This document shows, piece by piece, positions 5,195-36,817 of a DNA stretch of 64,000 nt. Each line of letters begins with the position of its first letter. Within the stretch, counting starts at the first letter, position 1. Origin of the DNA: Mageeibacillus sp. UBA6980 (GTDB lineage: Bacteria; Bacillota; Clostridia; Saccharofermentanales; Saccharofermentanaceae); assembly GCA_002450095.1 (NCBI GenBank), contig DJYK01000026.1, positions 17,781-81,780 on the forward strand. The letters run 5' to 3'. Made by a program: the position numbers and the translations under genes. The notes beneath the pieces are model-generated. The model did no database searches, was not told where the DNA came from, and was given only the letters and a program-made list of their open reading frames with translations.

Positions 5195-5195
5195 T

Positions 5196-6533: not shown

Positions 6534-6788
6534 TTACGGCATCGGTTTACGCTGCCCGTCTCCATGAAAGCCTCCGGAGGGCAGCGATTGGCGCTGCTCA
6601 CCTCCGTGGAAGCCTCCGGAGGGCAGCGATTCACGCTGCTCACCTCCGTGGAAGCCTCCGGAAGGCAGCGATTCGCGCTGCTCACCTCCGTGGAAGCCTC
6701 CGGAAGGCAGCGATTCACGCTGCTCACCTCCGTGGAATCCGAGAGAGGGAAGGTGTGTTCTTGTTGTAGTGTTCTGAATGTTTGTCAT
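6534..6788 (-). CDS. 84-aa tandem-repeat peptide (five 14-aa units LPSGGFHGGEQRES), first gene of the operon
   Basis: AAGGAG lies 9 nt upstream of the ATG at 6788, and the stop is 45 nt before the AAA+ gene. The repeat is open in all six frames, so coding status rests on the SD/ATG context and operon position. Confidence 0.55.
   Translation of the reverse strand: MTNIQNTTTRTHLPSLGFHGGEQRESLPSGGFHGGEQRESLPSGGFHGGEQRESLPSGGFHGGEQRQSLPSGGFHGDGQRKPMP
6538..6750. repeat. Head-to-tail 42-bp tandem repeat array (four near-perfect copies at 6567-6734 plus degenerate flanking copies)
   Basis: Copies at 6567-6608, 6609-6650, 6651-6692 and 6693-6734 differ by only a few bases each (unit gaagcctccggagggcagcgattcacgctgctcacctccgtg). 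Diverged partial copies lie on both sides. Confidence 0.95.
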
Positions 6789-6842
6789 AGTTGTTTTCTC
6801 CTTTATATAAGTTTTTTGTTGTGTGGCGAACCACGTTTATAC

Positions 6843-6998
6843 TCCTATGATATGTTGCTTTTTACTAAGCCCGGGGAGGGGGGTGATAATTTGAAGATCA
6901 ATCCTCTCCCTTGTTGTTATGCTCCTATGATATGATGCTTTTTCTATCATTCCCGTAGGGGGGTAATAAACTGAAAGTGGTAATTGATCCCCCCTCGC
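6843..6998. promoter_or_regulatory. Duplicated ~80-bp module in the divergent intergenic region (conserved 22-mer plus G-tract/C-tract hairpin)
   Basis: ctcctatgatatgTtgcttttt (6843-6864) and ctcctatgatatgAtgcttttt (6922-6943). Each is followed by a G-run (ggggagggggg / gtagggggg) and a complementary C-run (cctctccc / cccccctc). Confidence 0.5.
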
Positions 6999-7052: not shown

Positions 7053-7649
7053 ATGAGACTTGCAGATAACGGTTCATTAACTCTTGATAATAACTTACAG
7101 GAAGCCTTTATTGAGGACATAGACAGCTTTACATATATATGTCACGGACGTGTTCTTGAGGTTGATCATCATGAGTTGTTTTATTCAAAAAATCACAAGA
7201 TTGCGAACTCCATTTTCAGGGGGGAGCCCTATCAGTATGCTCATCAATCGATAGAATACAGAGTCAGACTCGGTAACCTCTCATATGGACGTTCGACAGA
7301 TTATAGAGATTACAATCTTTTTGGAAACTATCTTGGCATGATTAAGCCCGGAGATGAAGTAAAATTCAGAGTTCGTAAGGGACCTCGAGAGAAGGTTGTT
7401 GCAATTTATAACTGTACGACGGGAAGACAATTAAGACCGTCAATTCAGTTGTCTGCCGGTGTGGTCAGACTGTTTGCGGTTTTGGCCACGGCCTTGTTGG
7501 CCGGAGGCGTGTATGGTGTTTACTACCTGATAACGTCAGGCGTTCTTTGGCATATTTTTATGAAGATCCTTTATGGTCTTATCGGACTGGGCTTAGTCCT
7601 GTGGATCTATGATCTTTTGTTTTTCAGGTTCTTCAGAAAGAGAAAGTGA
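7053..7649 (+). CDS. Membrane protein (soluble N-domain plus C-terminal TM helices), function unknown
   Basis: 198 aa with a strong SD. Hydrophobic stretches VVRLFAVLATALLAGGVYGVYYLI and ILYGLIGLGLVLWIYDLLFF. Confidence 0.6.
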   Translation: MRLADNGSLTLDNNLQEAFIEDIDSFTYICHGRVLEVDHHELFYSKNHKIANSIFRGEPYQYAHQSIEYRVRLGNLSYGRSTDYRDYNLFGNYLGMIKPGDEVKFRVRKGPREKVVAIYNCTTGRQLRPSIQLSAGVVRLFAVLATALLAGGVYGVYYLITSGVLWHIFMKILYGLIGLGLVLWIYDLLFFRFFRKRK

Positions 7650-7652
7650 TCT

Positions 7653-10157
7653 GTGAGGTGGAATATGGACAAGAATACTACTGATTATTTATCTGCAAAG
7701 AGAATTGCTTCCGGGATAGTAAATGTGTCTCAAGGATATGGTCTTGAGACTGTTGCTCCCGGTGATGTTCTTGCTGACAGAATACTTATGCCTGATGTAA
7801 ACAGATGGTACAGGCTCAATCAGATACGAGCCTGTTCTAATAATGAGAATACTCATAATACTTATAAGAATGCAATCAAAAGCACTATGGCATCGGTGTT
7901 AAGACAAAATGAAGATATCGTTTGTTCATATGTGTTTGATGGTGGCGAAGTGTCAGTAATGTATGGAGCAAGAAATGCCGATGTTGGCATGATGCTTGAA
8001 AGTTCTTTGCCTGAATGCAGAATGGAGATGGCAAGTCTTGATATTAATGACAGAACATACAGCTATAACGGAATAATTACCGGTCGTATCAGAGGAGAAG
8101 AGCTGTCGGATAAATTGGTTGCAGCAGGCGTTAACGGCGGATCAGGCTTTGTTGCACTTGTAGCCCAGAGTGTCCCTTTACAACACTTGAATGAAAGAAT
8201 TGAAAATAATAACCGTTTGATTGGTTTCCTTAACCGTTACTCTGTGTCACGTAATACTTATGGTGAGATGAGTAGGTACGAGGAAGAATATGTTGAACAG
8301 GATATTGTTAATGCCGTTGAAATACTGAAGGAAGAGAACGATGTATTGCTTCGTAACAGAGAAGAAGGATTTACATACTCTATAATAAGATTTGGTGCAA
8401 ATGGCATTGATTTATTCAACAGGCTCAAAACAATGCTTTGTTCAGTTAATTCTGCCTCTGTGGACAGAAATACCGGTGTAAGCCATGAACCTGTCAGATG
8501 TATTGAGATCCCCCCGTTTATGCGAATCAGACCGCTGGCTGTACCATACATTAAGTCAGGCGATAATGTTTATATCCCTGATACTATGGTTGCAATTGAT
8601 GAATTGTCAGAAGCATTTATTCCTGCGAGACGGTCTGTATTCGGATATAACTACATTAACTATCATATAGATGAAAACTCTTATGAAGCTTTTCCTACAA
8701 TGCCGTTGTTTGCCGGTAAATCGTTTGAAGTCGGAAAGATAAGCGATTCAAACGGAAAGGCTTTAATTCCTGTAAGTATGATAAATCAGCATGTCTTTGT
8801 TACCGGAAGTACAGGTCAGGGTAAAACGACTACGGTAAAGAAGCTTTTAGCAGAGGCGTGGAAAGAACAGATTCCTTTTATTGTCTTTGAGAGTGCAAAG
8901 AAGGAGTACTTCTCCCTTATTAAAGCAATACCGTCTCTTCGTGTGCTGACATCAGGCCTTGACGGTAACGCTTTGGCAACGGATCCTTTCTGCCCGGAAA
9001 GGGGCATTACTATAGGTGAACATGCTGATGCTTTGGAAAGGGCGATAATGGCAGCTTGTGAAGGCGAACATCCTATCCCCGAAGCTTTGGCGGGTTTGCT
9101 TGAGTATTCATATCGTAAATCCGGATGGGAGTATGATGAGCCGGCTTATGAAGATTTACGAAGACCTTTTCCTACAGCCCGGGAAGTATATGAGAATATC
9201 GACGATTATATACGAGAGAATGCCGGGTATGGTCAGGAAGTGACGGCAAATATCAAAGGAGCTCTCGAGATGAGGATCAGGGTTCTGACCAGCGGATTGG
9301 CAACTCATGTGTTTACCTATAATAATGCAATGACTGCCAGGGAACTGCTATCTGTTCCGACCGTGATTGAGATGGAAGATTACCCCGAGAAACTAAGAGT
9401 GTTCTTGACCAATATCCTTTTGTTTAAGATCAAGTCTTATCTCAAAAAGGTTGCTGAGAGTGATTCATTGAAAAGAATCATAGTAATAGAAGAAGCGCAT
9501 AATATCTTCCGAAAGACAATACATGAAGAATCAACTCAGGCTGCAAATAACAGATATATAGAGAATATGCTCGCAACCGTACGTGCATCCGGTACAGGGA
9601 TAATTATAAGTGATCAGCGTCCGTCATTAATGTCTGACGCAGTTATAGCAAATACTTCCGTGAAAATACTGCATGCTCAAACATCGTCTGAAGATATCAA
9701 TATTGTTGGTCAGAGTATGGGGCTTACAGAGTTTCAGATAAGAAAAGTGAGAGAGCTTCGTAAAGGCGAATGTCTTATTGCATTGACCGGTGTCCACGGA
9801 GTTCAGAGAGCGAAGATTAATATGTTGGAAACAACAGCTGCAATCAATGCTGCGTGCCATATTTGTCATCATCGTTATGACTGTAAACAATCTATGGCTG
9901 CCAGAACAGTCGCATCTATGAATCGGGATTTGTTGAAATACCATGTATCCGGAATCCTCGGTGTGATATATGAACCTGATAGGCTTAAGTCCGGCCTCGA
10001 CAGATTATTCCATGATGTCGGATTATATTGCGGATTGACAGCCTCGTGTTGTGTTTTGGCAGAGATACTGAATGAGTATGCACCTGATCTTTCTTTCGAA
10101 GAGAAGAGGATAATCGTAACTTCATATTACAGGTTTTTATCCCCCCTCAAGAGATGA
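7653..10157 (+). CDS. HerA/FtsK-superfamily (DUF87-like) P-loop ATPase with a large N-terminal extension
   Basis: Walker A VTGSTGQGKTTT, Walker B RIIVIEEAHNIF, then IIISDQRPS. No TM segment. The start is ambiguous (GTG 7653 or ATG 7665). Confidence 0.7.
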   Translation: MRWNMDKNTTDYLSAKRIASGIVNVSQGYGLETVAPGDVLADRILMPDVNRWYRLNQIRACSNNENTHNTYKNAIKSTMASVLRQNEDIVCSYVFDGGEVSVMYGARNADVGMMLESSLPECRMEMASLDINDRTYSYNGIITGRIRGEELSDKLVAAGVNGGSGFVALVAQSVPLQHLNERIENNNRLIGFLNRYSVSRNTYGEMSRYEEEYVEQDIVNAVEILKEENDVLLRNREEGFTYSIIRFGANGIDLFNRLKTMLCSVNSASVDRNTGVSHEPVRCIEIPPFMRIRPLAVPYIKSGDNVYIPDTMVAIDELSEAFIPARRSVFGYNYINYHIDENSYEAFPTMPLFAGKSFEVGKISDSNGKALIPVSMINQHVFVTGSTGQGKTTTVKKLLAEAWKEQIPFIVFESAKKEYFSLIKAIPSLRVLTSGLDGNALATDPFCPERGITIGEHADALERAIMAACEGEHPIPEALAGLLEYSYRKSGWEYDEPAYEDLRRPFPTAREVYENIDDYIRENAGYGQEVTANIKGALEMRIRVLTSGLATHVFTYNNAMTARELLSVPTVIEMEDYPEKLRVFLTNILLFKIKSYLKKVAESDSLKRIIVIEEAHNIFRKTIHEESTQAANNRYIENMLATVRASGTGIIISDQRPSLMSDAVIANTSVKILHAQTSSEDINIVGQSMGLTEFQIRKVRELRKGECLIALTGVHGVQRAKINMLETTAAINAACHICHHRYDCKQSMAARTVASMNRDLLKYHVSGILGVIYEPDRLKSGLDRLFHDVGLYCGLTASCCVLAEILNEYAPDLSFEEKRIIVTSYYRFLSPLKR

Positions 10158-10197
10158 GTTTTATCTGATATATCATCAGAGTAAGGAGGAAGGATTT

Positions 10198-10422
10198 ATG
10201 GCAGAAGTATTAGGACCAATTGTTTGTGTTGTATATGCTTGTATAGCTGTTGGGTTGATAACCGGTACAGACGATTCGTTTAAGTGCAAAGTTATCGGAA
10301 TCTGTTTCGCTGTAGCTGCGATTCCTCTGGTGGTTTTTATGGACGTCGTGATTAAAGTTCTCGGCGTGTTAATTGTAATAGCAGCGATTTTAATATTTAT
10401 CTACTGCCTGTTAGGAGTGTGA
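10198..10422 (+). CDS. Small two-TM membrane protein
   Basis: 74 aa, almost entirely hydrophobic. SD AAGGAGGAAGG upstream. Confidence 0.6.
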   Translation: MAEVLGPIVCVVYACIAVGLITGTDDSFKCKVIGICFAVAAIPLVVFMDVVIKVLGVLIVIAAILIFIYCLLGV

Positions 10423-10928
10423 CTGTTATGGATAAGACTATCTATTCTGTTTTTCTTGTAGTTGTAATAGTCGGAGCTTGTGTAATTAAGCTTGTGTATC
10501 TTAATTGTAAGGAACGCAAGGCTCAGCAACAGCGAAATAGGAACAATAACAATAGCAGCAATATTAACAGTAACAGGAATAGTGTAAGCCGCCCGATAAT
10601 ACAGGAAAGTACACCTGTTGCCCGTGCAAATATTAGTAATAATTATGTTTATTATTTTGCAAACGGCAGAGGCCCTCTTGAAGACAGGACGTTTTGTTTC
10701 AGTTACGAGAAAGTTGGTGAATCCTGGCGTGCTTATATAGTAAAAATGCCTTCCTTGAGATCTCGTGATGCGTCATTCGCGTTGACCCACAGATTGAGAG
10801 CGGATGACGGCAGGACGTATGTCTGCTGGGACAGTCCGATACATAATCTGAAGGATATGCAGAATGTATCTAAGATGTGGGCTGACTGTATTTGTGAGTA
10901 CATCAAGACAGGAAAGAGATTCGGATGA
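10419..10928 (+). CDS. Single-pass membrane protein with an Asn-rich linker, function unknown
   Basis: N-terminal TM YSVFLVVVIVGACVIKLVYL, then QQQRNRNNNNSSNINSNRN, then a globular C-domain. Overlaps the upstream stop. The start could be ATG 10428. Confidence 0.5.
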   Translation: MTVMDKTIYSVFLVVVIVGACVIKLVYLNCKERKAQQQRNRNNNNSSNINSNRNSVSRPIIQESTPVARANISNNYVYYFANGRGPLEDRTFCFSYEKVGESWRAYIVKMPSLRSRDASFALTHRLRADDGRTYVCWDSPIHNLKDMQNVSKMWADCICEYIKTGKRFG

Positions 10929-10938
10929 GGGAAAAGAT

Positions 10939-11718
10939 ATGAAACTAATGAAAAACAAGTTAACGAATATGGGTGAAGCACAGGCGCACGCTGAAAGCTG
11001 CCATTGGAATTCACTTGGAAGAATTGCTGAGACTGAAGGCAGATTCATCTCTGATGCTGACAAGGAGCGGATAGCCGGCGGTGTAGATACACTTAAGGTT
11101 GTTGAGTACGATCCTTTCGGTGAACGAAGCGGTGGGTACAGATGCCTAGAGGGTAAAAGCGAGATGGAGATATCTGTTCTTAATAAAGAACAGGTTGAAC
11201 GCACTACAATGCATGAGACAAACCATTTCGTAAGTCATCACAGCGAGACTTCCGTCCCATCCGTGGAACGTAACGGTGTATATGAGTACCAGACGGTAGG
11301 ATTGCGCCACTCTTCTTGGTTCAGGTCTAATGAGACGGGCAAAGTTCAAGAGGTGAAGATAACGGGCCGTGGACTTAACGAAGGTGTTACTACGATGTAC
11401 ACGAACAGACAGTTGATGGAATTAGACCGTGCCAAAGGTTTGGAGGCTGCAAGAACCGGAATATATCAGCATGCTACTGAGTTGTCATCCCAGCTTGAGA
11501 TAATTGTCGGCAGCGATGTTCTTAAGGAGGCATATTACGGAGGCAAGGAAAACGAGTTGAAAGAGCGGGTTGATAGACTTGGAGGAGCTGGTACTTACGA
11601 GAGATTGCGGGAATGCATGGATGGAACCGTATCATCTAACTATTATGAGCGAATCAATTCGACTGCACGGGCTCAGAAGATAATGGAAGAACTGTATGAA
11701 GGAGCGAAGAGAAAATGA
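10939..11718 (+). CDS. Putative HExxH zinc metallopeptidase
   Basis: MHETNHF motif plus a downstream GLNEGVT (possible third ligand). ATG 10939 chosen from the longer 10864 ORF because the preceding gene ends at 10928. Confidence 0.45.
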   Translation: MKLMKNKLTNMGEAQAHAESCHWNSLGRIAETEGRFISDADKERIAGGVDTLKVVEYDPFGERSGGYRCLEGKSEMEISVLNKEQVERTTMHETNHFVSHHSETSVPSVERNGVYEYQTVGLRHSSWFRSNETGKVQEVKITGRGLNEGVTTMYTNRQLMELDRAKGLEAARTGIYQHATELSSQLEIIVGSDVLKEAYYGGKENELKERVDRLGGAGTYERLRECMDGTVSSNYYERINSTARAQKIMEELYEGAKRK

Positions 11719-12056
11719 AAGATTATGTTATGAACTATTTGTTCTCAAACGGCGTAAGTATTAACTCGGTTAAGGAAGAGCAGGAGATCGAAGAAGGTAT
11801 ATCGCTCTTTCTTACAGAGTGCGGCTTGGCTCGAAGTAAGGATTCAGAGTATGCCAGAGGATATGTAAGACAGATCTTGTCGATAATAGACCCCCGTGAT
11901 ATAAAACAAATATTTTTGAAGTATAATGTAATAAGTAGAACGAGACAGCTCGCAGCCGAAGGCCGTACCTATGCGGATCCTGAGATGATGAAGTGTCTTA
12001 CTGAACTGAATGAGTGCGGGTTATACGGAAAGTATGTGCCCAATGTAGAAGAGTAA
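11715..12056 (+). CDS. Small hypothetical protein, translationally coupled to the peptidase gene
   Basis: ATGA start/stop overlap at 11715-11718. 113 aa with no recognisable motif. Confidence 0.5.
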   Translation: MKDYVMNYLFSNGVSINSVKEEQEIEEGISLFLTECGLARSKDSEYARGYVRQILSIIDPRDIKQIFLKYNVISRTRQLAAEGRTYADPEMMKCLTELNECGLYGKYVPNVEE

Positions 12057-12073
12057 TATCAGGAGGAATGATT

Positions 12074-13774
12074 ATGGCAGTTAGAACTATTACAAGAAGA
12101 ATGAATGCAGCTGAAGAAGCATTTGTTTCCGAACTTACAAAGATACATTCGAGACATAACTTTGAGAATCTTCTCACAAAAATACTGGTTGAATCCAGAG
12201 AATCAAATACTGAAGTATGGAATGAGTTGGTTGGTAAACTTTTTGATATGTTAAGAGATTGTGATATCGAGTTTAGTGAGGATGTTTTTTCAGACCCTGC
12301 GAATTACGATGCTGACAAAGAATATATAGAATCTTTGCTTGATAATGTCGAACTTGAAAATAGTGATGATGTTTTAAGATGTCTTATGGGAAAGGTACAG
12401 AATGTAATTGAAGCTGCGCCTTTACCTGAAGCATATTTGGAAAGGATTGTTGACCATGCATTAAATGGTGAATTGAATGGTGATTCCTTACGCCTCAAGA
12501 TCCTCAAGAGATTTATTAAGTATGGACGAGATGCTTTGTTTGATTCTGATAGTATTTCTGCAGAAAAACCGGGAGCCGGTTACGGCGGTAAAGGGTATAT
12601 ATATAAATGCGCACAAAAAAATGCTGGGGCAGATATTAGTATAGAGAAAGAAGACTACGATAGAATTGCTGATTATATCGATGAAAGTGTATTCAATGTT
12701 TTAAATGATGACGAGATAAATCGTGATAATTTCAGACCTGGCCGAACGTATGGAATTATTAAGGTGGTTAACGATCTTGCAAATGGACTTTTCAGGTCTA
12801 ATGAATCAACAAAGAAAGACTTATATATATTTGCCATAATTTTTGATATGTCATTCTATTATGAGGATCCTTTGCGTGCTCAGATACGTGATGAGTATTT
12901 AGATGTCGAGACGGGTTTGTTTGATAACTATTATCAGAATAATATTAAACGATTCATTAATGAAAAATATTATGATAAAGATAATGATTGTCTTGGTTCT
13001 GCATACGAGATAATACCTTCCGGAAGTGGAATTAACTATAATAACTTTGTTGAGTTGACGTACATATACTATTTATCTAATACTTTGGCGGAGGAAATGA
13101 CTCCGGAGGAAAAGATCAGAAGATCAGCGGCAATGATTCAAAGAATCAGAAATGCAGATAGAAATACTCATGAAGTATTAAATACGGCTCAGAGTAAGAG
13201 TTTTTTTGTTGATGATATTTTGAAAAAAAGTATAACTGAAGATAGTTATTTTGATTTTGTTGTAAAGAATATTGATATTGGTGAAAAAGACGATAACTGT
13301 GGACCGATGCAATATGGAGTTGGATCAGATACAGCATTTAGAGAATATAAATCCATAATCAATCAATATGATCAGCTTAAGGCTGAAGTGAAAGATCAGC
13401 TTAATCAGATGAAAATTGATGATAAGTATTGTGAAATAATTGATCATCAGGGTCATTATCTTGACTATTTCCCGGAAGATAGAACTCCTGCGTTTGATTG
13501 TGTTATTAAGATTTTGGATCGTATGTTGAAGGAAGATTATGTGCAATCAAAAGAGAAACTAACCAGAACACATATGATAGCTGCTTATTATGAGTACTTT
13601 ATATTGAAGTATTCTGACGATAAGTCTACGTTGTATGATTTCAAAGATGTGTATGATTGGTTTAAGAACGGGATTAATTATCACTTGAGAATTTCAGGAT
13701 ATACGGAGATAAACGCCAAGAGTTTGTTGGATATTCTCATTATAGCTTCTGCATATTCGTATTTGGCATTGTGA
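12074..13774 (+). CDS. Hypothetical protein (566 aa)
   Basis: AGGAGG at 12061-12066, 7 nt before ATG 12074. No motif recognised. Confidence 0.55.
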   Translation: MAVRTITRRMNAAEEAFVSELTKIHSRHNFENLLTKILVESRESNTEVWNELVGKLFDMLRDCDIEFSEDVFSDPANYDADKEYIESLLDNVELENSDDVLRCLMGKVQNVIEAAPLPEAYLERIVDHALNGELNGDSLRLKILKRFIKYGRDALFDSDSISAEKPGAGYGGKGYIYKCAQKNAGADISIEKEDYDRIADYIDESVFNVLNDDEINRDNFRPGRTYGIIKVVNDLANGLFRSNESTKKDLYIFAIIFDMSFYYEDPLRAQIRDEYLDVETGLFDNYYQNNIKRFINEKYYDKDNDCLGSAYEIIPSGSGINYNNFVELTYIYYLSNTLAEEMTPEEKIRRSAAMIQRIRNADRNTHEVLNTAQSKSFFVDDILKKSITEDSYFDFVVKNIDIGEKDDNCGPMQYGVGSDTAFREYKSIINQYDQLKAEVKDQLNQMKIDDKYCEIIDHQGHYLDYFPEDRTPAFDCVIKILDRMLKEDYVQSKEKLTRTHMIAAYYEYFILKYSDDKSTLYDFKDVYDWFKNGINYHLRISGYTEINAKSLLDILIIASAYSYLAL

Positions 13775-13792
13775 TAATAGGAGATTTGATTA

Positions 13793-14470
13793 ATGGGATT
13801 AAGTGAACCCGGTTTTTACCATGTACAAGAGTGTGTACCTAATCAGGATTGTATTCTTGCTGGTACCGTGAATAATTATCGAGTAGCAGTATTGGCTGAT
13901 GGAGTTTCTACTTGTCGTTGTTCAGGACAAGGTGCTTTTTTAGCCTGTTCTAAAACAAGAAGTTTTTTACTGAATAATGCAGAAGATGTTTTCGAATATG
14001 ATAAAGAATCAATTGCTGAATACATAGTTGATTCTGTTTATCGCTCTTTGTGTGAAGTATCAAATGTAAATGGCGATGCTCCCGCTGACTATTCCAGTAC
14101 ACTATCTGCAGTCTTATATGATCGCAGATCTCACCGATTAGTATGCTTTCATTTGGGAGATGGGTTGATTCTTTTGGCAAATAGGAAAGGATGCAGAGCT
14201 TTATGCATCCCGGGCAGCCGCATTAACGGAACAGCAGTTACAACAACAATTGGTGCTCATAAGGTATCAGTTGTTGTTAAAGAAGATATCTCATTTGATA
14301 AACACGTGTTATTGTGTTCAGATGGGGCATGGGAGAATATGTATAGAAAGGGATTCTTAAAGAATGAACCATTAAAATACATAACTAAAGGCAGGTTTAA
14401 TGCTTTGGATAATTATATTAGAAATACACATCCTAATGACGACTACAGTTATATTGCGATGAAACTATAG
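13793..14470 (+). CDS. PP2C-family Ser/Thr protein phosphatase
   Basis: VLADGVS, HLGDGLILL and LLCSDGAWE blocks, matching the metal-binding Asp motifs of bacterial PP2C/SpoIIE-like phosphatases. Confidence 0.7.
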   Translation: MGLSEPGFYHVQECVPNQDCILAGTVNNYRVAVLADGVSTCRCSGQGAFLACSKTRSFLLNNAEDVFEYDKESIAEYIVDSVYRSLCEVSNVNGDAPADYSSTLSAVLYDRRSHRLVCFHLGDGLILLANRKGCRALCIPGSRINGTAVTTTIGAHKVSVVVKEDISFDKHVLLCSDGAWENMYRKGFLKNEPLKYITKGRFNALDNYIRNTHPNDDYSYIAMKL

Positions 14471-14485
14471 AATAGGAGACTTTTT

Positions 14486-17400
14486 ATGGAACGGAATCAT
14501 AGATTGGTAAATGATGATGAGATTGAATTGTCGGAAGTAAGTACAGGTGCAACTGTTACCTTTAAGATAAATGATGTGCTTTCGGGTTCAGACGGATCAT
14601 CTGTAATATGTTATAGTGCCAGACGTCTTGATACCGGAAGGTCCATTATTCTTAAGGAGTTCTATCCCTTAGTTTATTCGTTTAATGATGACGGAAAGAG
14701 TTTTTCTCTTGTTAGAAATGATAATAACCAATTAATACCGTCATCAAATATCACAGAAGCCAAAGAAAAGTTCTTAGATCTTAGAAATACTAAATTCAAT
14801 ACTTCTAAAAAGATAATTGAAACAATAAACTCGAGTCAAGGTGAGAATATTCTAAAGACGTTTATTCCAAGTATTTCATTGTATCGAGGAACTGTTGATA
14901 ATGATGGTAATTGGAATAGCACTTTTTATTATGTTGTTGATCAGCCTCAATTGATTACTTTCGAAAGTGTTTGTGAAGATATCAAAAAGAATCCGCAGAA
15001 GGATTCAGAGTATAAATTGTTGGTTATATTAAAGTCGATTCAACAGTTAACTATCTGTATAAAGACTCTTCATGAAGAAGGTTTTTGTCATAGAGATATT
15101 TGTCCAAGCAATTTTGGATTTGCAAAGCGCAGTGAAGACTATCTTACTGAAACAATATCATTGTTTGATATTGATTGTTTTATGTATTTTAAAGATAAGA
15201 AAACGAATGAATTTGTGGGAACCCCAGGCTTTATGGCACCGGAGGTTGAGTCAAAAACTGTTCAGAGGTCTGTATCTGCAGATTTGTATTCGATAGGAGC
15301 AACTCTTTACTATGCTCTTACAGGAGAACACGCACAAGCAATAGAAGATCATAATAATAATCAGATAAGAGAAGAAATAGAACAATCGAAACTTGTAAAA
15401 GCTTCTACGGTTAATAATAATCCATATTTACTGGGGAAAATATGCGAGTTGCTTTATAAGTCATTGAATAGGGATGTAGATAATCGATATAAGAATTCGG
15501 ATGAGCTACTTAAAGACATTAGAATGGCTTTATTCTTTATGTTGCCTCCTGATAGAAGAGATATTGATGTTGACGGACTGGTATGGGAACTTACCAGAAC
15601 TGATTATACAACTGAACAGAAACAATACTATAAATTTTTGATGCTGTATCAGTTGTTTAAAGTACCTTTATACAATCCTGATCGCAGTGACGATAACAAT
15701 ACTATCGATGTTACACTTGTTGGATTTGACAGATATGGTTATGATTTCCTTGATGCTGTGCTTCAATTCAGTCAATGTATTAAGGAGACTGTCAATACAA
15801 GAGTTTATGTAAACGTCGATAGGTTTGAATCAGTTGATTTATATTTGGGTAATCGACCGGCTTTGAAGGACTTCTTTAGAATAAATAAGTTCGGAACACC
15901 ATTGAACCCTGTAAAAGAGTTTAATGACACGGATACATATTCATACGGTACAGTTGAGTTCATTAATTTTACAGGAAATGTAGATCCAAATCATATTGTT
16001 CGAAATGAGGATAATCGTAATTATATATTTGTTACTTTGGGAAATGACAAGAAGAATTACGAATATGCAACCCAATTAAGTGATGTAGTTTTGAATGTAG
16101 ATAAATGTATAACCTATATTGCAACGATGAACGAAGCAGTGGAAGATTATGCAGATTGTGTTGTGCCGATATTTGTTAATAAATTCGATATGAATGACGA
16201 AAAATCGGAGTTCTATCTGATTGAGGAGCGTTCAAAGATTCGTAACTTCCTGCATGACAGAGGAATATATGTAGATATTGAAAAAAAGATGAAGGATTAT
16301 CATAAAGATAACGAATATAAGCATAATGCATGTGTATCTGGAGTGTTATCACTGAAATATATGTTGCATCGTATAGGTGTTTCTCGTGATATGATTCATG
16401 ATCCAGAAGGGACTTCGGTAGAATTTGAGCGCGTTCACGATAATAACAGAAATGAACTCATATATATTGAACATAAACGCTGGGTAGTTGATAAATTATG
16501 TGATGGTTGGAGTCCTCTTCCTATAGATGAATTTGATGTGTATACATCTAGCGGTGAGAATAAAGATACAACTAACAAGCGACATTCTTGTATCGTCAGA
16601 AGCAGCATAAATAACAACGTCAATATACTGAAGGATCAGTATGGAGACGGCATTAATGTCAATGTGGATAAATGGGACGGAACAGAAGTAATACCTGAAA
16701 TGGATGAGCTTGACAGAGTATCTTTAACTTTGCATAGGTCATTTAAAAGGGCTGCCAATAATCCCAATAGAATAAATGATATCAAAAGAAATCTCTCTTT
16801 TATTGGTCAGGAAGTTTCCTGCGATCCTGAAAAATACAAACCATTTTCTGATTGGCAGCATTATATACTGAATCTTTTGGAAGGGAAAAACCCGGTTGAT
16901 AGATATGGTTCATTAAGGGACGCTTTCTTCTCGGCTATTGAGAAAGATGACGATGAGGTAAAGAAAAAGGCTAAAACAGTTGATGATGACGTTAAATGTA
17001 TAGTTCAATATAACAAGTTCCTTAACTATAAATATGAAGATGAGAAGATCTTTGATAATCTTCCCTTTATATTGAATTATTCATTAGAAACAGTATTAGT
17101 TAGAGATTTATACTTTGGTCCCAATAAAGAGAAACTGTTAAATAATTATGCATCAATTATGATCGCTAATCCTGCTGCTGTCGTTTATTGTGTTAATCTA
17201 ACCGCTACTAATGCTAACGTTGATGCAATATGTAATGTTATAGACTCAATCAATAACACTTTCAAAAAGCACTTTATACGGACCCAAATGAAGTTTTTGT
17301 TGTTCTATAATAATAATGACATAATTAGACATAAAAAAGAGAACTTAATAACTGCGTTAAATTCAAATAATCGGCAGTTCACAGTTATAGGTTCGGTCTT

Positions 17401-18601
17401 GATTCATAATAGTTACAATGAATCTCGTGAAAGTGCATTAAAAGTTTTAAATGGGAATAATAATTATTTAGTTGAAGATGAAGACTATTCGTTTAATTAT
17501 AAAACTCGTCATTTTGACAAGTCACCCCGCCTTAAGTACATAACTAAGCATTTACCAAGTCTTGCAGTAGCAGATGTTTTGAATATTACAAATATTGAAT
17601 ATGCATATGATGTTCCGACGTATTATGAAAGCTTTAAAACTCTATGGTCATTCTATGCTGATAACAATCAAAGGTCTAACTGGAATGCATTTTGTTCTCC
17701 TTTTAATATAGATAGAGACTCTCATGTAAAACAGTTACTAAATATGAAAGTTAAGGAAAAACATAAGGATGAAGGGAATTATGATAGCTGTTCTTTTACC
17801 ATTCCATCAGTATGTCAGGAGGGCGTTTTCAAGATTATGGAGTTTCTCCATAATAATAGAATAATTAAGTGGTCTCATAATTTTACACATCAATCGATAA
17901 ATGATTTAAAGTTGGATTATAAAGTGTTAAGCACCTGCAATGAAAAATTGAAGAATCTCCTAAGTGAACCACAATTCTTAATTAATGATAAAGCTTTATA
18001 TACTCTTAAACAGAGTAGCCATTATTACGTAAAGTATAAGAATTTGCGCGTGAATCTAAACGAATATGAAGAAGTTGCTGATAAGAATTATCCTAGGGAG
18101 ATTATCGAAGAAATACTAAAAGAAGCTAAAATAATTGATTTTATTAATGATGAAGGTTTCACATGTACCAGTTTCGAGGCTTATGATCTTATTTCTGCAG
18201 AAGGTAGGTTGCTTGAAATTCTTGTTTACTATGCATTAAAGACTAGTGGTATGTTTGATGATGTCGCAACAAGTATTAGTGTTAATTGGGATGATTACAG
18301 TCGTAATGAGCTTGATTTAATCGTAACCAAAGGTTTTAGGTGTGCAGTTATAGAATGTAAGGCTAGGAGTATGATTGGTAATAGTGAGTATAGGCAATTA
18401 GTTGGTGAGAATATTGATCATCCGGGCCCTGGCTTTAGGTTATCTGTCCCAACTGAAAGAATTTTGGTCGCTATGTGCAATCCTGATAATGATACAGCCG
18501 ATTCAGAATTAAAGAATAAAGTAAAAACCATATATTGGTTAAGTGATAAACCAAAGGAATTTGCTCAAAGAATTATAGATGCATTAGGCTGGAATGATTG
18601 A
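14486..18601 (+). CDS. Giant Ser/Thr protein kinase fused to a C-terminal Card1/DUF1887-like PD-(D/E)xK nuclease domain
   Basis: Kinase motifs: IILKE (VAIK Lys), HRDICPSNFGF (HRD..N), LFDIDCF (DFG position), GTPGFMAPE (APE). C-terminus: NELDLIVTKGFRCAVIECKAR (D..ExK). The middle has a weak Rossmann-like VTLVGFDRYG and a RyR-like IEHKRWVVDKLCDGW segment. Confidence 0.75.
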   Translation: MERNHRLVNDDEIELSEVSTGATVTFKINDVLSGSDGSSVICYSARRLDTGRSIILKEFYPLVYSFNDDGKSFSLVRNDNNQLIPSSNITEAKEKFLDLRNTKFNTSKKIIETINSSQGENILKTFIPSISLYRGTVDNDGNWNSTFYYVVDQPQLITFESVCEDIKKNPQKDSEYKLLVILKSIQQLTICIKTLHEEGFCHRDICPSNFGFAKRSEDYLTETISLFDIDCFMYFKDKKTNEFVGTPGFMAPEVESKTVQRSVSADLYSIGATLYYALTGEHAQAIEDHNNNQIREEIEQSKLVKASTVNNNPYLLGKICELLYKSLNRDVDNRYKNSDELLKDIRMALFFMLPPDRRDIDVDGLVWELTRTDYTTEQKQYYKFLMLYQLFKVPLYNPDRSDDNNTIDVTLVGFDRYGYDFLDAVLQFSQCIKETVNTRVYVNVDRFESVDLYLGNRPALKDFFRINKFGTPLNPVKEFNDTDTYSYGTVEFINFTGNVDPNHIVRNEDNRNYIFVTLGNDKKNYEYATQLSDVVLNVDKCITYIATMNEAVEDYADCVVPIFVNKFDMNDEKSEFYLIEERSKIRNFLHDRGIYVDIEKKMKDYHKDNEYKHNACVSGVLSLKYMLHRIGVSRDMIHDPEGTSVEFERVHDNNRNELIYIEHKRWVVDKLCDGWSPLPIDEFDVYTSSGENKDTTNKRHSCIVRSSINNNVNILKDQYGDGINVNVDKWDGTEVIPEMDELDRVSLTLHRSFKRAANNPNRINDIKRNLSFIGQEVSCDPEKYKPFSDWQHYILNLLEGKNPVDRYGSLRDAFFSAIEKDDDEVKKKAKTVDDDVKCIVQYNKFLNYKYEDEKIFDNLPFILNYSLETVLVRDLYFGPNKEKLLNNYASIMIANPAAVVYCVNLTATNANVDAICNVIDSINNTFKKHFIRTQMKFLLFYNNNDIIRHKKENLITALNSNNRQFTVIGSVLIHNSYNESRESALKVLNGNNNYLVEDEDYSFNYKTRHFDKSPRLKYITKHLPSLAVADVLNITNIEYAYDVPTYYESFKTLWSFYADNNQRSNWNAFCSPFNIDRDSHVKQLLNMKVKEKHKDEGNYDSCSFTIPSVCQEGVFKIMEFLHNNRIIKWSHNFTHQSINDLKLDYKVLSTCNEKLKNLLSEPQFLINDKALYTLKQSSHYYVKYKNLRVNLNEYEEVADKNYPREIIEEILKEAKIIDFINDEGFTCTSFEAYDLISAEGRLLEILVYYALKTSGMFDDVATSISVNWDDYSRNELDLIVTKGFRCAVIECKARSMIGNSEYRQLVGENIDHPGPGFRLSVPTERILVAMCNPDNDTADSELKNKVKTIYWLSDKPKEFAQRIIDALGWND

Positions 18602-18673
18602 TCATTAGAGTTATAGTACTTCAGATAAGTATTAAATACCGCTGATCTGAACGAACCTGAATAGCTTTCTTGG

Positions 18674-21523
18674 ATGAGAGATAATAACATGACTGAACCG
18701 ACATTCTTACATAAAACTAAAGATGGATCTTCCCTTCAGAATAAGCCTAAGGTCTTCTTTACATGCCATCCTGATGATTTTGAGAAGTGTTTTAAGCAGA
18801 TATGCCAAGATATATTTGAGTTTCAAGATTGTGTTGTTTTCTATACTGAGGATATGACTCAAGATCTTAGTGATAAGAATACTTGTGTTGACTTGGAAAG
18901 AATGAATCTGTTTGTTATACCGGTCACAATAAAAACTTTGATAACACCTAACAGAGCTATGGATTCGGATTTCCATTTTGCGTTGGAAAGACATATCCCT
19001 GTTCTACCTATTATGATTGAACCTGGTATTTATGATGTTTATTCAAGACCGGATAAATTTGGAGACCTACAATATCTAAAGACTTATAGTAAATCAGATA
19101 CGGAAGTGGATTATAAAAACAAACTTAAGAATTATCTTGAATCTGTGTTAATAAGTGATGAATTAGCGAATCGTGTGCGTCAAGCTTTTGACGCGTATAT
19201 ATTTCTGAGCTACAGAAAGAAGGATAGACAGTATGCTAACAGTCTAATTAAGATGATTCATAATAATCCCCAATGTGAGAATATTGCGATATGGTTTGAT
19301 GAGTTCCTAATTCCCGGAGAGAGCTTTAGGGAGGGTATAGATCGAATATTAAATGACAGTAAACTCTTTACTTTGCTGGTAACACCGAATTTGCTTGAGC
19401 GAAATGGCGAAGAACCTAATTTTATAATGAGGGAGGAGTACCCTAAGGCTAAGGAAATGGGAAAACCTATTCTCCCAACTGAGATGCAAGCAACAGATCG
19501 AGATGCATTAGCAGCGGAGTTTCCAGGATTACCTGAATGTGTAGATTATGTAGATCAAGAATCTTTTAATAAGAGGTTGCTTGATGTGCTGACAAGAACG
19601 GCTATTGCAGAAAACCCTAATAACACTCCGGAACACGATTATCTCATTGGATTAGCGTATTTAGAGGGTATTGATATGGAAGTTGATGCTGATCGAGCTG
19701 TTAGACTAATTACAAAAGCTGCAGAAGCAGATTTGCCTGAAGCCATCGAAAAGCTGATTGATATGTATAGGAATGGTATAGGGGTACAAAGAAATTATAA
19801 AAAAGCACAGAAGTGGGTAAAAAGATGGTTATATCATTTGACAAGGTGGATTGAAGAGGCAGATGAGCCTTTGGATAACTGCATTAGACGTTTGCTTGAT
19901 GTTGCATATTTCTTTCTGGATATTGGTGATTATGATGATTATATAGATGGTATGTATGGTGCATATACTTTTGGTGTTAATCGCTTGGGACGCGATAATC
20001 AGTTTACACTTCGTGCAATGTCCGAACTGGCTTTAGGATATTTTTATACAGAAAAATATGAAAAAGCGCTTGAATTATCTATAAAGTGTTATGATGCGAG
20101 TTGCAGGCATCAGGGAAAAGAATCTCATGATAGTATTCGGTATCAAACGATTCTTGCTCGAGTATACCAATCTATGAATGATACTGATCGTAGCATTTCT
20201 TTGTACGAAGAGTGTTTTGAGCTTAGCAGTTCTGTATTAGGTGAGAATGATGAAGTTACTTTAACAATAATGGCGAGTCTAGCTATTGCATATTGTGATA
20301 AAAATGAGTTTGATAAGAGCATAGAATTGTTGAAGGATTGTTATCAGCGTTGTTGTAATACATTTGGAGAGACATCAGATAAGAGTATTGATGTGCTTGC
20401 AAAAATGGCTCGTTCATACTATAGATATGACTTTTATGATAAGGGGATAGGTTTATATCAAAAATGTTATGAATACTATTGTGACAAATATGGAAAGGAT
20501 CATCCTAAGTCAATAGGCACTCTTCAGTACATTGCAGATGGATATTTTGATAACGGTGGTTATCAAAATGCAATCAATTTGTATGATTCAGTTATTAGTT
20601 TTAATCGTGTATTATTTGGAGATGATAGTCCGTTTATCATTTCGCCGCTGCTTGGACTTGCTAAATCATATAAAGAGATTTTGGAATATGAAAAATCGAT
20701 GTCTATATATGAACAATTGTATGTAGTGTATTTTAATAACTCCAAGTATGATGAGTGCGTCAATATACTAATGAATGAATGTTATCCGCTTAGTTGTAAG
20801 GTTTATGGGGATAAGCATGAGAATAGTATTAGTTTATTAGATTGTGGAAGACTTGTTGCTTTGTATTGTGATGCGTGTAAAGAGGAGGACAAAGTTCGCG
20901 GTGAGTATAATAATTACGATTTAATGAAACAAGTGTATACTAATCAGTTCGATTATTATAAAAGGTGTTATCAACTAATAAAAAAGCATAAGAATTATAG
21001 GCCTGAGATTTATAACAAGATTCTCGATGCTATTTCTAGTTTCAATGTTCCAGGCTCATTACGACGAGATCCTTCTGCAATCTATTTATTAGAAGAATGC
21101 TATAAATATAAGTGTGAAGAGTTCGGAAGATTGAATCCCGGCAGTATTGGTTCTTTGGAGGCTCTTTCAAACTTTTATTACTTTAATCACGATTATGAGA
21201 AAGCGATTGAACTTAAATCCCAATGTTATGCTGATTATGTTAGCGTTTTTGGAAAAGCTGATTTTAATACTTTGGATTGTCTAGAGGCTCTTGCTGAAAT
21301 GTATTCTTCTATTGGTGAGAAACAGAAATTGATAGAGTGTTATAATGAATTGTTTTCGATCGTTGATGAATTAGATATAGATACTGATCTTTACAGGTGG
21401 ATAAAGGATCAACTAAAAGATTATCATTATCGTATGAGTTGTATGCGGTATGGTGAAAACCATCCAATTAGTGAAATGATTATGAATAAGATAACCGAAT
21501 TGAATCAGAAGGAAAGTGGTTAA
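18674..21523 (+). CDS. Tandem TIR-like domains fused to Sel1 and TPR repeats
   Basis: KVFFTCHPDD.. (TIR/flavodoxin-like) and YIFLSYRKKDRQYA..WFDEF..LVTPN (TIR). Sel1-like LAYLEGIDMEVDADRAVRLITKAAEADLPEA..YRNGIGVQRNYKKAQKW. Then many TPR_12-like repeats. The start is ambiguous (ATG 18674 or 18689). Confidence 0.75.
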   Translation: MRDNNMTEPTFLHKTKDGSSLQNKPKVFFTCHPDDFEKCFKQICQDIFEFQDCVVFYTEDMTQDLSDKNTCVDLERMNLFVIPVTIKTLITPNRAMDSDFHFALERHIPVLPIMIEPGIYDVYSRPDKFGDLQYLKTYSKSDTEVDYKNKLKNYLESVLISDELANRVRQAFDAYIFLSYRKKDRQYANSLIKMIHNNPQCENIAIWFDEFLIPGESFREGIDRILNDSKLFTLLVTPNLLERNGEEPNFIMREEYPKAKEMGKPILPTEMQATDRDALAAEFPGLPECVDYVDQESFNKRLLDVLTRTAIAENPNNTPEHDYLIGLAYLEGIDMEVDADRAVRLITKAAEADLPEAIEKLIDMYRNGIGVQRNYKKAQKWVKRWLYHLTRWIEEADEPLDNCIRRLLDVAYFFLDIGDYDDYIDGMYGAYTFGVNRLGRDNQFTLRAMSELALGYFYTEKYEKALELSIKCYDASCRHQGKESHDSIRYQTILARVYQSMNDTDRSISLYEECFELSSSVLGENDEVTLTIMASLAIAYCDKNEFDKSIELLKDCYQRCCNTFGETSDKSIDVLAKMARSYYRYDFYDKGIGLYQKCYEYYCDKYGKDHPKSIGTLQYIADGYFDNGGYQNAINLYDSVISFNRVLFGDDSPFIISPLLGLAKSYKEILEYEKSMSIYEQLYVVYFNNSKYDECVNILMNECYPLSCKVYGDKHENSISLLDCGRLVALYCDACKEEDKVRGEYNNYDLMKQVYTNQFDYYKRCYQLIKKHKNYRPEIYNKILDAISSFNVPGSLRRDPSAIYLLEECYKYKCEEFGRLNPGSIGSLEALSNFYYFNHDYEKAIELKSQCYADYVSVFGKADFNTLDCLEALAEMYSSIGEKQKLIECYNELFSIVDELDIDTDLYRWIKDQLKDYHYRMSCMRYGENHPISEMIMNKITELNQKESG

Positions 21524-21710: not shown

Positions 21711-21739
21711 GGCGCTCCTCGAGGGCGCCTTTTTGTTTT
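21711..21739 (+). terminator. Intrinsic terminator after the 11-gene operon
   Basis: ggcgctcctcgagggcgcc hairpin followed by tttttgtttt. Confidence 0.7.
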
Positions 21740-24014: not shown

Positions 24015-24545
24015 TCAGGAGGCGGAGGATTCTAATTCGCGGAACTCTTCGTAGTATCTGTCATTGGTCCCGAATCTTACTGCTTCGGCGTATCCTTCTT
24101 CGAGGAGGATACGCTCGAGCATTACGACTTCGCCGCCCTGATCGATGTAGACGTATGCGAGCGTTCTGTCGTACTGGTCGTAGATCTCGTTATCGTATTC
24201 GAGCCATACTTCGTAGTTTGCTTCATCCATGAGTTCCTTGACGAAGTCGGAGGCGATGACGCCTTCCTCGGTATTGCGTTCTTCTTCCTGTGCGACAGAT
24301 TCGGGAGTGTTTATTCCGATAAGCCTTACGCGCGTCCTGACGCCGTCGATATATACGATGAGCGTATCACCGTCGACGACCCTCTCGACCTCATACGGTC
24401 CGTTAAGCTCGATATCGGAAGGTGTCTCAATCTCGGTCTGCTCGGTCATCTCATATAAGAAGTCTTCACATCCGGTGAACAGAGAGCCTATTAAAACTGC
24501 ACTAATAATCACGATTCCGGTTTGTAAAATTCTGTGTTTACTCAT
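24015..24545 (-). CDS. Thermonuclease (SNase-like) lipoprotein
   Basis: DGDTLIVYIDGVRTRVRLIGINTPES motif. Signal peptide with LFTGC lipobox. Confidence 0.8.
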   Translation of the reverse strand: MSKHRILQTGIVIISAVLIGSLFTGCEDFLYEMTEQTEIETPSDIELNGPYEVERVVDGDTLIVYIDGVRTRVRLIGINTPESVAQEEERNTEEGVIASDFVKELMDEANYEVWLEYDNEIYDQYDRTLAYVYIDQGGEVVMLERILLEEGYAEAVRFGTNDRYYEEFRELESSAS

Positions 24546-36800: not shown

Positions 36801-36817
36801 CTTACGGAGGTAAGAAA

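Follow-up and report, generated by a model that had tools for sequence, protein, structure and literature searches.

We analysed a 64,000-nucleotide stretch of DNA from Mageeibacillus sp. UBA6980 (assembly GCA_002450095.1, contig DJYK01000026.1, positions 17,781 to 81,780 of the forward strand), referred to below as the window, in whose numbering all its features are given. The subject of this study is a gene for a protein of 1371 residues (14486..18601, + strand, ATG start), here called the giant protein, which combines in this order a Ser/Thr kinase, a Rossmann domain, a domain resembling the repeats of ryanodine receptors (RyR), a helical linker, a CARF-like domain and a PD-(D/E)xK nuclease. 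Together with the genes for an all-alpha protein (A), a PP2C-type phosphatase and a TIR-Sel1-TPR protein, this gene forms a cassette of four. Judged from sequences, structural models and analogy with known systems, we consider it somewhat more probable than not (roughly 0.55) that this cassette is a TIR-signalling, Thoeris-like conflict or defence system, in which the giant protein would act as the effector. This reading builds on observations of four kinds, namely the identities of the domains, the conservation of their residues, the order of the genes and the modular variants found in nature.

An initial annotation, made from the sequence alone, had proposed that a kinase and a Card1-type nuclease are joined in one chain. 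This was borne out, as both domains score above their Pfam thresholds and the catalytic residues of both are conserved in the family. The ~900 residues between kinase and nuclease, which had been left unassigned, comprise four parts: the Rossmann, RyR-repeat, helical linker and CARF-like parts. An AlphaFold model of residues 361-1371, built from a 32-sequence alignment, had a mean predicted local distance difference test score (pLDDT) of 81.4 and a predicted template modelling score (pTM) of 0.80. Conservation was assessed in an alignment of 28 full-length homologs, which are 22-42% identical and were collected by a word-indexed homology search; unless stated otherwise, residue frequencies given below refer to this alignment. 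The ~28 members returned by that search had made the family appear rare, an idea that was dropped after exhaustive profile searching with the C-terminal module as query: at E<=1e-30, the family has at least 421 cluster representatives. Among the 150 best matches of this search, the lengths were mostly ~1400 residues. All full-length genomic matches came from Clostridia-type metagenome-assembled genomes from gut, rumen and mouth, and the distribution of the family is patchy. On the viral contigs of IMG/VR no full-length homolog was found, only generic matches to the kinase domain; on these grounds, and as no significant fold match was obtained in BFVD, a phage origin was ruled out. The initial annotation had also held that the architecture fits no described family. 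Indeed, no entry in PADLOC or NCBIfam and no description in the literature covered, outside which lay the 2020 CARF census of Makarova et al., accounts for the giant protein or its system, and nothing relevant was found in the literature on a combined kinase/PP2C/TIR/CARF system.

The candidate sensor occupies the middle of the chain. Its first part is a Rossmann-type, nucleotide-binding-like domain (residues ~401-570; 15686..16195, + strand), which is TrkA-like by fold alone. Foldseek aligned it with the TrkA structures 4j9u_H/4j9v_A at a probability of 1.0 (E=0.05, ~166 columns, root-mean-square deviation 5.2), and malate dehydrogenases were further matches. TrkA was not found by sequence when the family profile was compared with the PDB sequences, and Pfam PF02254 (TrkA-N) did not match any of the family members scanned. 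We therefore claim a likeness of fold alone, and no membership in TrkA-N by sequence. The Rossmann-like segment VTLVGFDRYG of the initial annotation accordingly holds as a fold (TrkA 4j9u_H), and the search for PF02254 that had been proposed with it gave no sequence match. In most members the Rossmann loop reads GxGxxG, and in the family consensus beta2 then ends with an acidic residue.

The second part is the RyR-repeat-like domain (residues ~571-760; 16196..16765, + strand), which was recognised by profile comparison with the PDB and is modelled with pLDDT values of 83-93. All 26 matches of a profile of residues 570-770 against the PDB were ryanodine-receptor repeat domains (best E-value 1.2e-6, RyR2 0.0016, the bacterial (Bacteroides) structure 3NRT 0.011). 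Pfam RyR (PF02026) matched 8 of 18 members, at best with 2.9e-4, and gave no match for the window protein scanned by itself. A resemblance that had initially been offered as weak and by eye was thereby placed on a profile basis. The domain contains a candidate pocket for isomers of cyclic ADP-ribose (cADPR), made up of H663 (16472-16474), W666 (16481-16483), H700 (16583-16585) and D743 (16712-16714, all + strand). All four are present in the window protein; among the homologs, H663, W666 and D743 never vary, and 96% have H700. These residues are the counterparts of H75, W78, H100 and D117 in the phage protein RyDEP and of H129, W132, H154 and D171 in RyR Tad. The same register was obtained by HMMER alignment to RyR2 and to the bacterial 3NRT, and by hhalign alignment to small RyR proteins that are described below. 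In addition, the motif 'LDxLDRxS' of the giant protein aligns with 'EKEYDRNT' of RyR domains.

The functions of these residues have been studied in phage proteins. RyDEP is a cADPR glycosidase that binds and cleaves 2'/3'cADPR; its catalytic dyad consists of H75 and D117, W78 forms a stack with the adenine, H100 touches the phosphates, and the ligand residues are conserved across PF02026 (PMC13232231). RyR Tad binds 1''-3' glycocyclic ADP-ribose (gcADPR) with a Kd of 43 nM via H129/W132, K147/H154 and K170/D171 (doi 10.64898/2026.06.04.730250). The spacing of the residues is equal in the two proteins, with Trp at +3, His at +25 and Asp at +42 from the first His (PMC13232231; doi 10.64898/2026.06.04.730250). 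Both sources are 2026 preprints on phage RyR proteins; host-encoded RyR domains, be it in TIR operons, kinases or nucleases, are not mentioned in either. By analogy with these proteins, and in view of the conserved residues, the RyR part of the giant protein is probably a sensor of a TIR product. It is likely that the RyR-like domain fulfils this role instead of, or besides, the CARF-like domain.

The giant protein shares with RyDEP and RyR Tad the PF02026-type fold and the His-x-x-Trp...His...Asp residues. However, the phage proteins are small and shut Thoeris down, whereas the RyR domain studied here is encoded by a host or an integrative and conjugative element, lies within an effector, has two insertions and is found beside TIR genes. 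This last point suggests sensing rather than evasion. It is nevertheless conceivable that the cassette serves a conjugative element for counter-defence or addiction, with RyR domains that destroy or soak up the Thoeris signals of the host. Such a role would be in keeping with the conserved His/Asp catalytic dyad, and with the fact that the experimentally studied prokaryote-associated RyR proteins are all anti-Thoeris proteins (PMC13232231; doi 10.64898/2026.06.04.730250). It would likewise suit the genes for coupling proteins of type IV secretion systems (T4SS) beside several of the related loci and the VirB4/HerA-like ATPase gene upstream in the window. Against it, the loci encode TIR proteins of their own, from as many as five consecutive genes that point the same way, and a sponge or glycosidase has no need of a nuclease, a kinase and a phosphatase. 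As no full-length homolog was found on the IMG/VR viral contigs either, we judge a counter-defence function to be quite improbable.

The RyR-like domain is joined by a helical connector (residues 761-865; 16766..17080, + strand), which is all-helical in the model (pLDDT ~77-94) and has K849, D852 and P860 as invariant residues, to what appears to be the output of the protein. This consists of a CARF-like Rossmann domain (residues ~866-1010) with an inserted alpha/beta region (together residues 866-1230; 17081..18175, + strand) and of a Card1/Can2-type PD-(D/E)xK nuclease (residues 1231-1371; 18176..18601, + strand; Pfam PF09002). Over residues 1239-1299, the model Card1_endonuc (PF09002) scored 32.7 bits against a cut-off of 26.4, and it scored 36.9 bits against the same cut-off when the C-terminal module was scanned by itself; it was found in 15 of the 16 members scanned. 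A family profile also matched Can2 (7bdv, E=0.008) over the catalytic core, and the PADLOC models CARF_PDDEXK and Csx1 gave a match that was confined to the nuclease part. The nuclease motif is made up of E1244, D1277 (18314-18316), E1290 (18353-18355) and K1292 (18359-18361, all + strand) and is kept in ~24 of the 28 homologs (D1277 in 89%, E1290 and K1292 in 86% each). The initial annotation had written this motif as NELDLIV..x13..VIECKAR; the D..ExK arrangement proved correct, but 'x13' is the distance from the Asp to the Glu and not the gap between the two strings.

The region in front of the nuclease had been singled out for a search for CARF-, SAVED- or SLOG-like folds, and a CARF-like fold was found there. 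Indeed, the 15 best PDB matches that Foldseek returned for the model of residues 361-1371 were all full-length CARF+nuclease effectors (Cdn1, Can2 and Card1), with E-values from 2.6e-8 to 2.1e-5 (Cdn1 2.6e-8, Can2 ~1e-6, Card1 1.4e-6) and template modelling scores on the target of 0.33-0.55. The alignments run over 507-571 columns against targets of 372-437 residues (Card1 507/373, Cdn1 533/399, Can2 ~550/437). Since they exceed the length of the targets, both the CARF and the nuclease domain are covered. As modelled, the last ~510 residues are a whole Card1/Can2-like sensor-nuclease module with insertions, and not only a nuclease. The CARF-like region shows a beta-alpha-beta-alpha pattern in the model, and its sequence 'FxNVAxxxxxNP' has a weak, sub-threshold, colinear match to 'LLPNVIPVIQAPP' of Can2 (alpha1-beta2). 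None of the CARF families of Pfam matched in the C-terminal module, and no significant CARF sequence match was obtained.

By fold, the C-terminal ~510 residues correspond to the whole two-domain proteins Card1, Can2 and Cdn1 (PADLOC CARF4--CARF_PDDEXK), and the nuclease belongs to PF09002 with E..D..ExK intact. Unlike these proteins, the module is the tail of a chain of 1371 residues, has insertions of ~100-150 residues and lacks a significant CARF sequence signature, and no association with CRISPR or Cas10 was seen in the window or in ~25 related loci. The trigger of the module probably differs from that of Card1, Can2 and Cdn1. The same comparison bears on the possibility that the CARF-nuclease part is a conventional receptor of cyclic oligoadenylates, working in an ancillary role for a CBASS-like or type III CRISPR system encoded elsewhere in the genome, with the RyR and Rossmann domains as accessories. 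This would agree with the PF09002 nuclease and with the closest structures, as Card1, Can2 and Cdn1 are activated by the cyclic oligoadenylates cA4 or cA3. However, the window showed neither a CRISPR array nor a gene for Cas10 or a CD-NTase, and none of these was present among the Pfam-annotated or scanned genes that flank the giant gene in the ~25 related loci. Moreover, the CARF-like region is the least conserved of the protein and the conserved partners are TIR and RyR proteins. We consider a cyclic-oligoadenylate receptor of this kind very improbable, and a link to type III CRISPR was rejected because neither array nor Cas10 was found in the window or the ~25 related loci.

The TIR protein of the cassette (18674..21523, + strand) has 949 residues and consists of an N-terminal TIR-like region, a TIR_2 domain (residues 176-293), Sel1 repeats and a TPR_12 array. 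It is the adjacent TIR protein of the initial annotation, now delimited and assigned to these domains. Its gene starts 72 nt past the giant gene on the same strand. The protein matched the ThsB model of PADLOC weakly (E=1.2e-4) and showed a weak sequence similarity to the NADase AbTIR (E=5.5e-4). Over residues 13-398 it shares 47% and 41% identity with TIR proteins encoded downstream of kinase homologs in two related loci (L006 and L024, respectively). All four genes of the cassette are co-directional, with gaps of 18, 15 and 72 nt between them, and are followed by a hairpin that resembles an intrinsic terminator (21711..21739, + strand; GGCGCTCCTCGAGGGCGCC then TTTTTGTTTT), which is the strongest terminator-like site on the + strand between 6400 and 24200. 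The GC content of the cassette (12014-21523) is 0.338, compared to 0.418 upstream and 0.49 in the chromosomal flank.

At its N-terminus (residues 1-360; 14486..15565, + strand), the giant protein carries a Hanks-type Ser/Thr kinase with a divergent N-lobe and an insert. Pfam Pkinase (PF00069) scored 63.1 bits against a cut-off of 31.7 over residues 172-336 and matched 27 of the 28 family members, and profile matches in the PDB were PknB, ULK and CDPK kinases. The full set of Hanks motifs that the initial annotation had listed was found in place, namely K57 in IILKE, HRDICPSN at residues 202-209, D228 in FDID and GTPGFMAPE ending at E253. No homolog deviates at K57, D204, N209 or D228, and 96% of them have E253. 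The best PADLOC and NCBIfam matches of this domain were the defence kinases PD-T4-6, Mad6 and PglW, though these matches span only the kinase domain and lie far below the family cut-offs. The likeness to PD-T4-6, Stk2, Mad6 of MADS and PglW of BREX is thus at the level of the Hanks kinase domain only. None of the kinase-based defence modules considered (PD-T4-6, Stk2, Mad6, PglW and TerY-P) has RyR, CARF or Card1 modules.

Directly upstream of the giant gene lies the gene for the PP2C-type Ser/Thr phosphatase (225 residues; 13793..14470, + strand), which matches nearly the whole profile of Pfam PP2C_2 (E=8.5e-19) and has the Asp motifs NQD, ADG and SDG of the metal-binding type. Pairs of Ser/Thr kinase and PP2C genes are common in Bacillota. 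One could therefore think of a housekeeping pair of the PrkC/PrpC or Stk1/Stp1 kind, in which the kinase has a long regulatory tail and the nuclease- and sensor-like folds are non-catalytic scaffolds. Such a pair would be compatible with weak NCBIfam matches to Stk1 and Stp1, with a Cys in the catalytic loop of the window kinase (Cys206) and with the four homologs that lack the nuclease motif. However, the two matches are far below their cut-offs (Stk1 35.7 bits against 450, Stp1 21.2 against 230), and the nuclease catalytic motif is present in ~24 of the 28 homologs. In addition, the family is patchily distributed, the cassette is of low GC content, and the genes were never found in a conserved chromosomal context, being flanked instead by TIR, STAND and T4SS genes. 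Taken together, this makes a housekeeping function highly improbable.

The third partner of the kinase, protein A (566 residues; 12074..13774, + strand), starts at a conserved ATG at 12074; the mechanically called open reading frame starts with a GTG at 12014. No match to A was found in Pfam, NCBIfam or the PDB sequences. Its AlphaFold model is all-helical (pLDDT 76, pTM 0.73), and the best fold match in the PDB had an E-value of 1.9. Kinases with two partners of this kind are also seen in the TerY-P triad, which consists of a vWA protein, a PP2C phosphatase and a Ser/Thr kinase. The cassette resembles this triad in that its kinase is paired with a PP2C and a third protein, but differs from it in that the third protein is all-alpha and has no vWA fold. 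The idea that A is a divergent vWA protein, as in the TerY-P triad or the ternary systems of Kaur et al., was rejected, as A is all-alpha and has no match to a PDB fold or profile. Kaur et al. 2020 (PMC7159879) mention the combination of kinase, PP2C and vWA only for actinobacterial GTPase systems.

The gene order in related loci (numbered here with the prefix L) is A, PP2C, giant protein and then usually one to five TIR proteins. A homolog of A is encoded directly upstream in all 23 kinase-bearing loci with upstream sequence, and also in a locus with a nuclease-less form (L094). In 18 of these 23 loci a PP2C gene separates A from the kinase, the order A-PP2C-kinase is colinear in nearly all of them, and in one homolog (P0010) the PP2C is fused to the N-terminus of the kinase. 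TIR genes follow in 9 of the 17 loci with enough flanking sequence, or in 10 if a TIR-like DUF4062 protein (L012) is counted. Such genes lie directly downstream in the window and in L004, L005 (three TIR genes), L006 (likewise three), L008, L009, L019, L024 and L029. In kinase-bearing loci there are one to three downstream TIR proteins, in fusions with TPR, Sel1, WD40, LRR, FtsK, tubulin or kinase domains. The link between the giant protein and its TIR neighbour that had been suspected from the window alone was thus found to recur, and it extends to a kinase-less variant that lies within an array of five TIR genes.

Kinase-less proteins form a length class of ~1000-1060 residues and start exactly at the linker that precedes the Rossmann domain. 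In L090/L091, a kinase-less form of 1027 residues has neither A nor PP2C nearby. Its gene is preceded by a TIR-DnaA-like gene and followed by the gene for a RyR protein of 93 residues and by four more TIR genes, all five TIR genes having the same orientation. In L168/L169, the start of the kinase-less gene overlaps a gene for a DUF4062(TIR-like)-TPR protein, and the gene for a 95-residue RyR protein follows. No TIR or RyR neighbour was seen for the kinase-less forms on the short contigs L092 and L093; upstream of them are encoded a CotH kinase (L092) and a helicase-like protein (L093), and in L093 LRR proteins follow downstream. Protein A is absent from all of the loci L090-L093. The converse truncation is represented by a nuclease-less form (L094). 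The nuclease-less proteins P0029 and P0030 have an additional RyR domain of the canonical kind at their end (E=2.5e-33). The nuclease-less form lies between a homolog of A and a ThsB-like TIR gene, and it keeps A, the kinase, RyR and TIR.

A stand-alone gene for a canonical RyR protein of 93-95 residues lies right after the giant gene in many loci; the window has no such gene. Examples are L090:7039-7320, L168:12243-12530, L010:7885-8154, L018:8406-8681, L025:14102-14377, L024:15617-15883 and L022:5008-5274, and in L010, L018, L022, L024 and L025 the gene trails a full-length kinase gene. The small RyR proteins are 59-86% identical between loci whose giant proteins share only ~25%, and they have more than 6000 homologs. 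They keep the ligand His, Trp and Asp and have Thr at the position of the second His. Apart from this Thr, they are nearer to the phage RyR proteins than the RyR domain of the giant protein is.

In these loci A and PP2C co-vary with the kinase domain, and TIR and the small RyR protein co-vary with the Rossmann-RyR core. As the kinase-less forms lack A and PP2C and most of them keep TIR or TIR-like and RyR partners, the link to TIR belongs to the Rossmann-RyR-CARF-nuclease part and not to the kinase. This is of importance for an alternative in which the giant protein, A and PP2C are a self-contained abortive-infection switch, with the kinase or A sensing a phage cue and autophosphorylation activating the nuclease. 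The TIR proteins would then make no signal for the giant protein; they would either be products of independent defence genes in the island or act downstream, as NADase effectors turned on by the kinase. Several observations are in line with this alternative. A and the kinase are the strictest pair, being found together in 23 of 23 loci. TIR is missing at 6 of 17 loci, and where TIR proteins are present they appear to be swapped freely, as the N-terminus of the window TIR protein is 47% identical to its counterpart in L006 when the kinases share only 28%. Lastly, kinase-only defence proteins exist, and it was PD-T4-6, Mad6 and PglW that the kinase domain matched best. However, TIR or TIR-like partners and the small RyR gene are retained in three of the four kinds of kinase-less form examined, among them those in L090/L091 and L168/L169, and the invariant His/Trp/His/Asp set of a cADPR-binding fold would be left without a role. 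A self-contained switch is therefore unlikely in our view.

We favour instead a TIR-signalling system of the following kind. The TIR proteins would detect infection through their variable repeat or partner domains and turn NAD+ into a signal of the cyclic-ADP-ribose type. Judging from the conservation of its residues and from the experiments on phage RyR proteins, the RyR-like pocket of H663, W666, H700 and D743 in the Rossmann-RyR module would bind this signal and possibly hydrolyse it later. Binding would switch on the C-terminal Card1/Can2-like CARF-nuclease, which would cut nucleic acid and thereby arrest the cell or the invader. The kinase, its obligate partner A and the opposing PP2C may be a separable phospho-switch that sets a threshold or provides a second output, as their co-variation suggests. 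In the many relatives that encode it, the small stand-alone RyR protein might buffer or destroy the signal, in analogy to the ring nucleases of type III CRISPR systems.

Several findings weigh against this reading. Firstly, no TIR gene lies beside the giant gene in 6 of the 17 flanked loci (L007, L013, L022, L023, L027 and L028); if TIR is the sole source of the signal, the partner must be encoded elsewhere in these cases. In the window TIR protein, the catalytic Glu is ambiguous, with an Ile opposite the Glu of AbTIR and Glu residues three to four positions off. Secondly, H700 and D743 line up with their counterparts only if insertions of ~12 and ~26 residues are allowed for in comparison with canonical RyR domains, the RyR match by hhalign has a low probability (13%, E=0.002), and the support for cADPR binding by RyR domains comes from two preprints on phage proteins only. 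Thirdly, the CARF-like region is the least conserved of the giant protein, with ~25% pairwise identity, and the nuclease motif is clearly degraded in 4 of the 28 homologs, and the nuclease is therefore not always the output. Finally, the window protein itself deviates from its family. The catalytic-loop Lys (HRDxKxxN), which makes the gamma-phosphate contact specific to Ser/Thr kinases, is replaced by Cys206, is Asn in the closest homolog and is Lys in the other 26 of the 28, so that this copy of the kinase may have a reduced or altered activity. Furthermore, the Rossmann loop reads G413-F-D415-R-Y-G418, that is GxDxxG in place of GxGxxG, and the first RyR half-repeat is degenerate. In view of these three deviations, the giant protein of the window may be a weakened copy.

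TIR-based nucleotide signalling is common to bacterial, plant and animal immunity. To our knowledge, few receptor folds are known for the products of TIR proteins, namely SLOG and Macro in Thoeris and the EDS1 complexes in plants. In Thoeris, which has types I and II, the TIR protein ThsB is the signal synthase and ThsA the effector, and a thsA gene may pair with multiple thsB genes. Likewise, the cassette and its relatives have one effector gene beside one or several variable TIR genes, and some of their TIR proteins match the ThsB_TIR model. By analogy, the same logic from signal to effector to abortive infection would be expected. One domain of the effector also has a fold for which binding of 2'/3'cADPR has been demonstrated (PMC13232231). 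The differences from Thoeris lie in the candidate RyR-like and Rossmann sensor, in the Card1-type nuclease and kinase as outputs, and in the addition of PP2C and the all-helical A. Pfam, PADLOC and Foldseek gave no SIR2, SLOG or Macro domain of the ThsA type for the giant protein or for the proteins encoded beside it. As there is no ThsA with SIR2-SLOG or Macro domains, we describe the system as Thoeris-like in its working only and do not class it as Thoeris.

Relative to what is known, the candidate RyR-type receptor pocket within a host effector would be new, and the same is true for the combination of sensor and effector in a TIR-based second-messenger defence. One polypeptide would unite the sensing of a second messenger, reversible phosphorylation and a nuclease of the Card1 kind known from CRISPR systems. 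We put forward tentatively, and with slightly more doubt than belief, the joint proposal that the bacterial fold of the RyR Repeat12 type is a receptor of TIR-made cADPR and that the cassette represents a Thoeris-like type with a RyR/Rossmann sensor, a Card1-type nuclease, a phospho-switch and RyR erasers. If it holds, the anti-Thoeris RyR proteins of phages would have been captured from host immune receptors, and the RyR Repeat12 of animal calcium channels would descend from an immune sensor of cADPR. This would be of direct relevance to a question of long standing, the mode of action of cADPR on ryanodine receptors, and a sensory RyR pocket would provide a tractable bacterial model of cADPR recognition by ryanodine-receptor domains. 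The proposal of such a pocket as a host receptor comes only months after phage counter-defence proteins with the same fold were shown to bind or cleave the signals. The kinase-less and nuclease-less forms represent a natural deletion series, which makes the role of each part directly testable. The family is abundant in Clostridia of gut and rumen, where defence systems are poorly charted.

Further genes recur near the homologs. A gene for a small protein of the PGDYG family (PF14083) follows the kinase gene in loci without a small RyR gene (L005:11804-12547, L006:12340-12834, L007:10910-11383 and L019:14700-15185). Its product may be an alternative accessory; nothing relevant was found in the literature on PGDYG. 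A trypsin-like protease is encoded two genes downstream of the nuclease-less variant (L094:13765-15330), and VWA and Tubulin_2 proteins take the place of TIR in the TIR-less locus L007 (13485-18782). These proteins may be alternative effectors or partners. The large protein encoded upstream of a kinase-less variant at L093:2-2464 is 34% identical to a 1385-residue DEAD/ResIII helicase encoded downstream of a full-length kinase gene (L022:7519-11673), and helicases of this type may be a further recurrent partner. In L005, L006, L019 and L027 the system has genes for T4SS coupling proteins, ClpP and SprT-like proteins on its flanks, an indication that it is carried on conjugative elements.

The low-GC cassette, its neighbours in the window and the T4SS coupling proteins beside its relatives give a setting that resembles a defence island. 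In the window, a protein of 887 residues with a TIR_2 domain, an NPHP3_N STAND NTPase and a winged helix (528-3191, + strand) is a second, independent TIR immune-type gene product of the same low-GC island. It is followed on the opposite strand by two overlapping genes (3599-6488, - strand) for a Prok-JAB + ThiF/E1-like protein (536 residues) and an AAA_2 ATPase (430 residues), a pair in the style of ubiquitin-like conjugation and of a sort known in conflict systems. A 42-bp tandem repeat (6538-6737; 4.8 copies, 91% matches) covers the start of an open reading frame for 123 residues (6564-6935), its first 26 bp being upstream of the start codon. Next comes a block (7053-12056, + strand; GC 0.418) with the gene for the HerA/VirB4/CedD-like ATPase of 834 residues, which is preceded by a gene for 198 residues and followed by four small genes; among these four, one encodes a transmembrane-like protein. 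We considered the ATPase and the small genes as parts of the system and rejected them, as they are conserved beside none of the homologs and differ from the cassette in GC content (0.418 compared to 0.338). A staphylococcal-nuclease homolog (24015-24545, - strand) is encoded at the edge of the island. The remainder of the window looks chromosomal, and includes an IS110-family transposase (36731-37906, + strand) and a cluster of three genes for non-ribosomal peptide synthetases (A-PCP-C, A-PCP-C and A-PCP-TE; 48506-58091, + strand).

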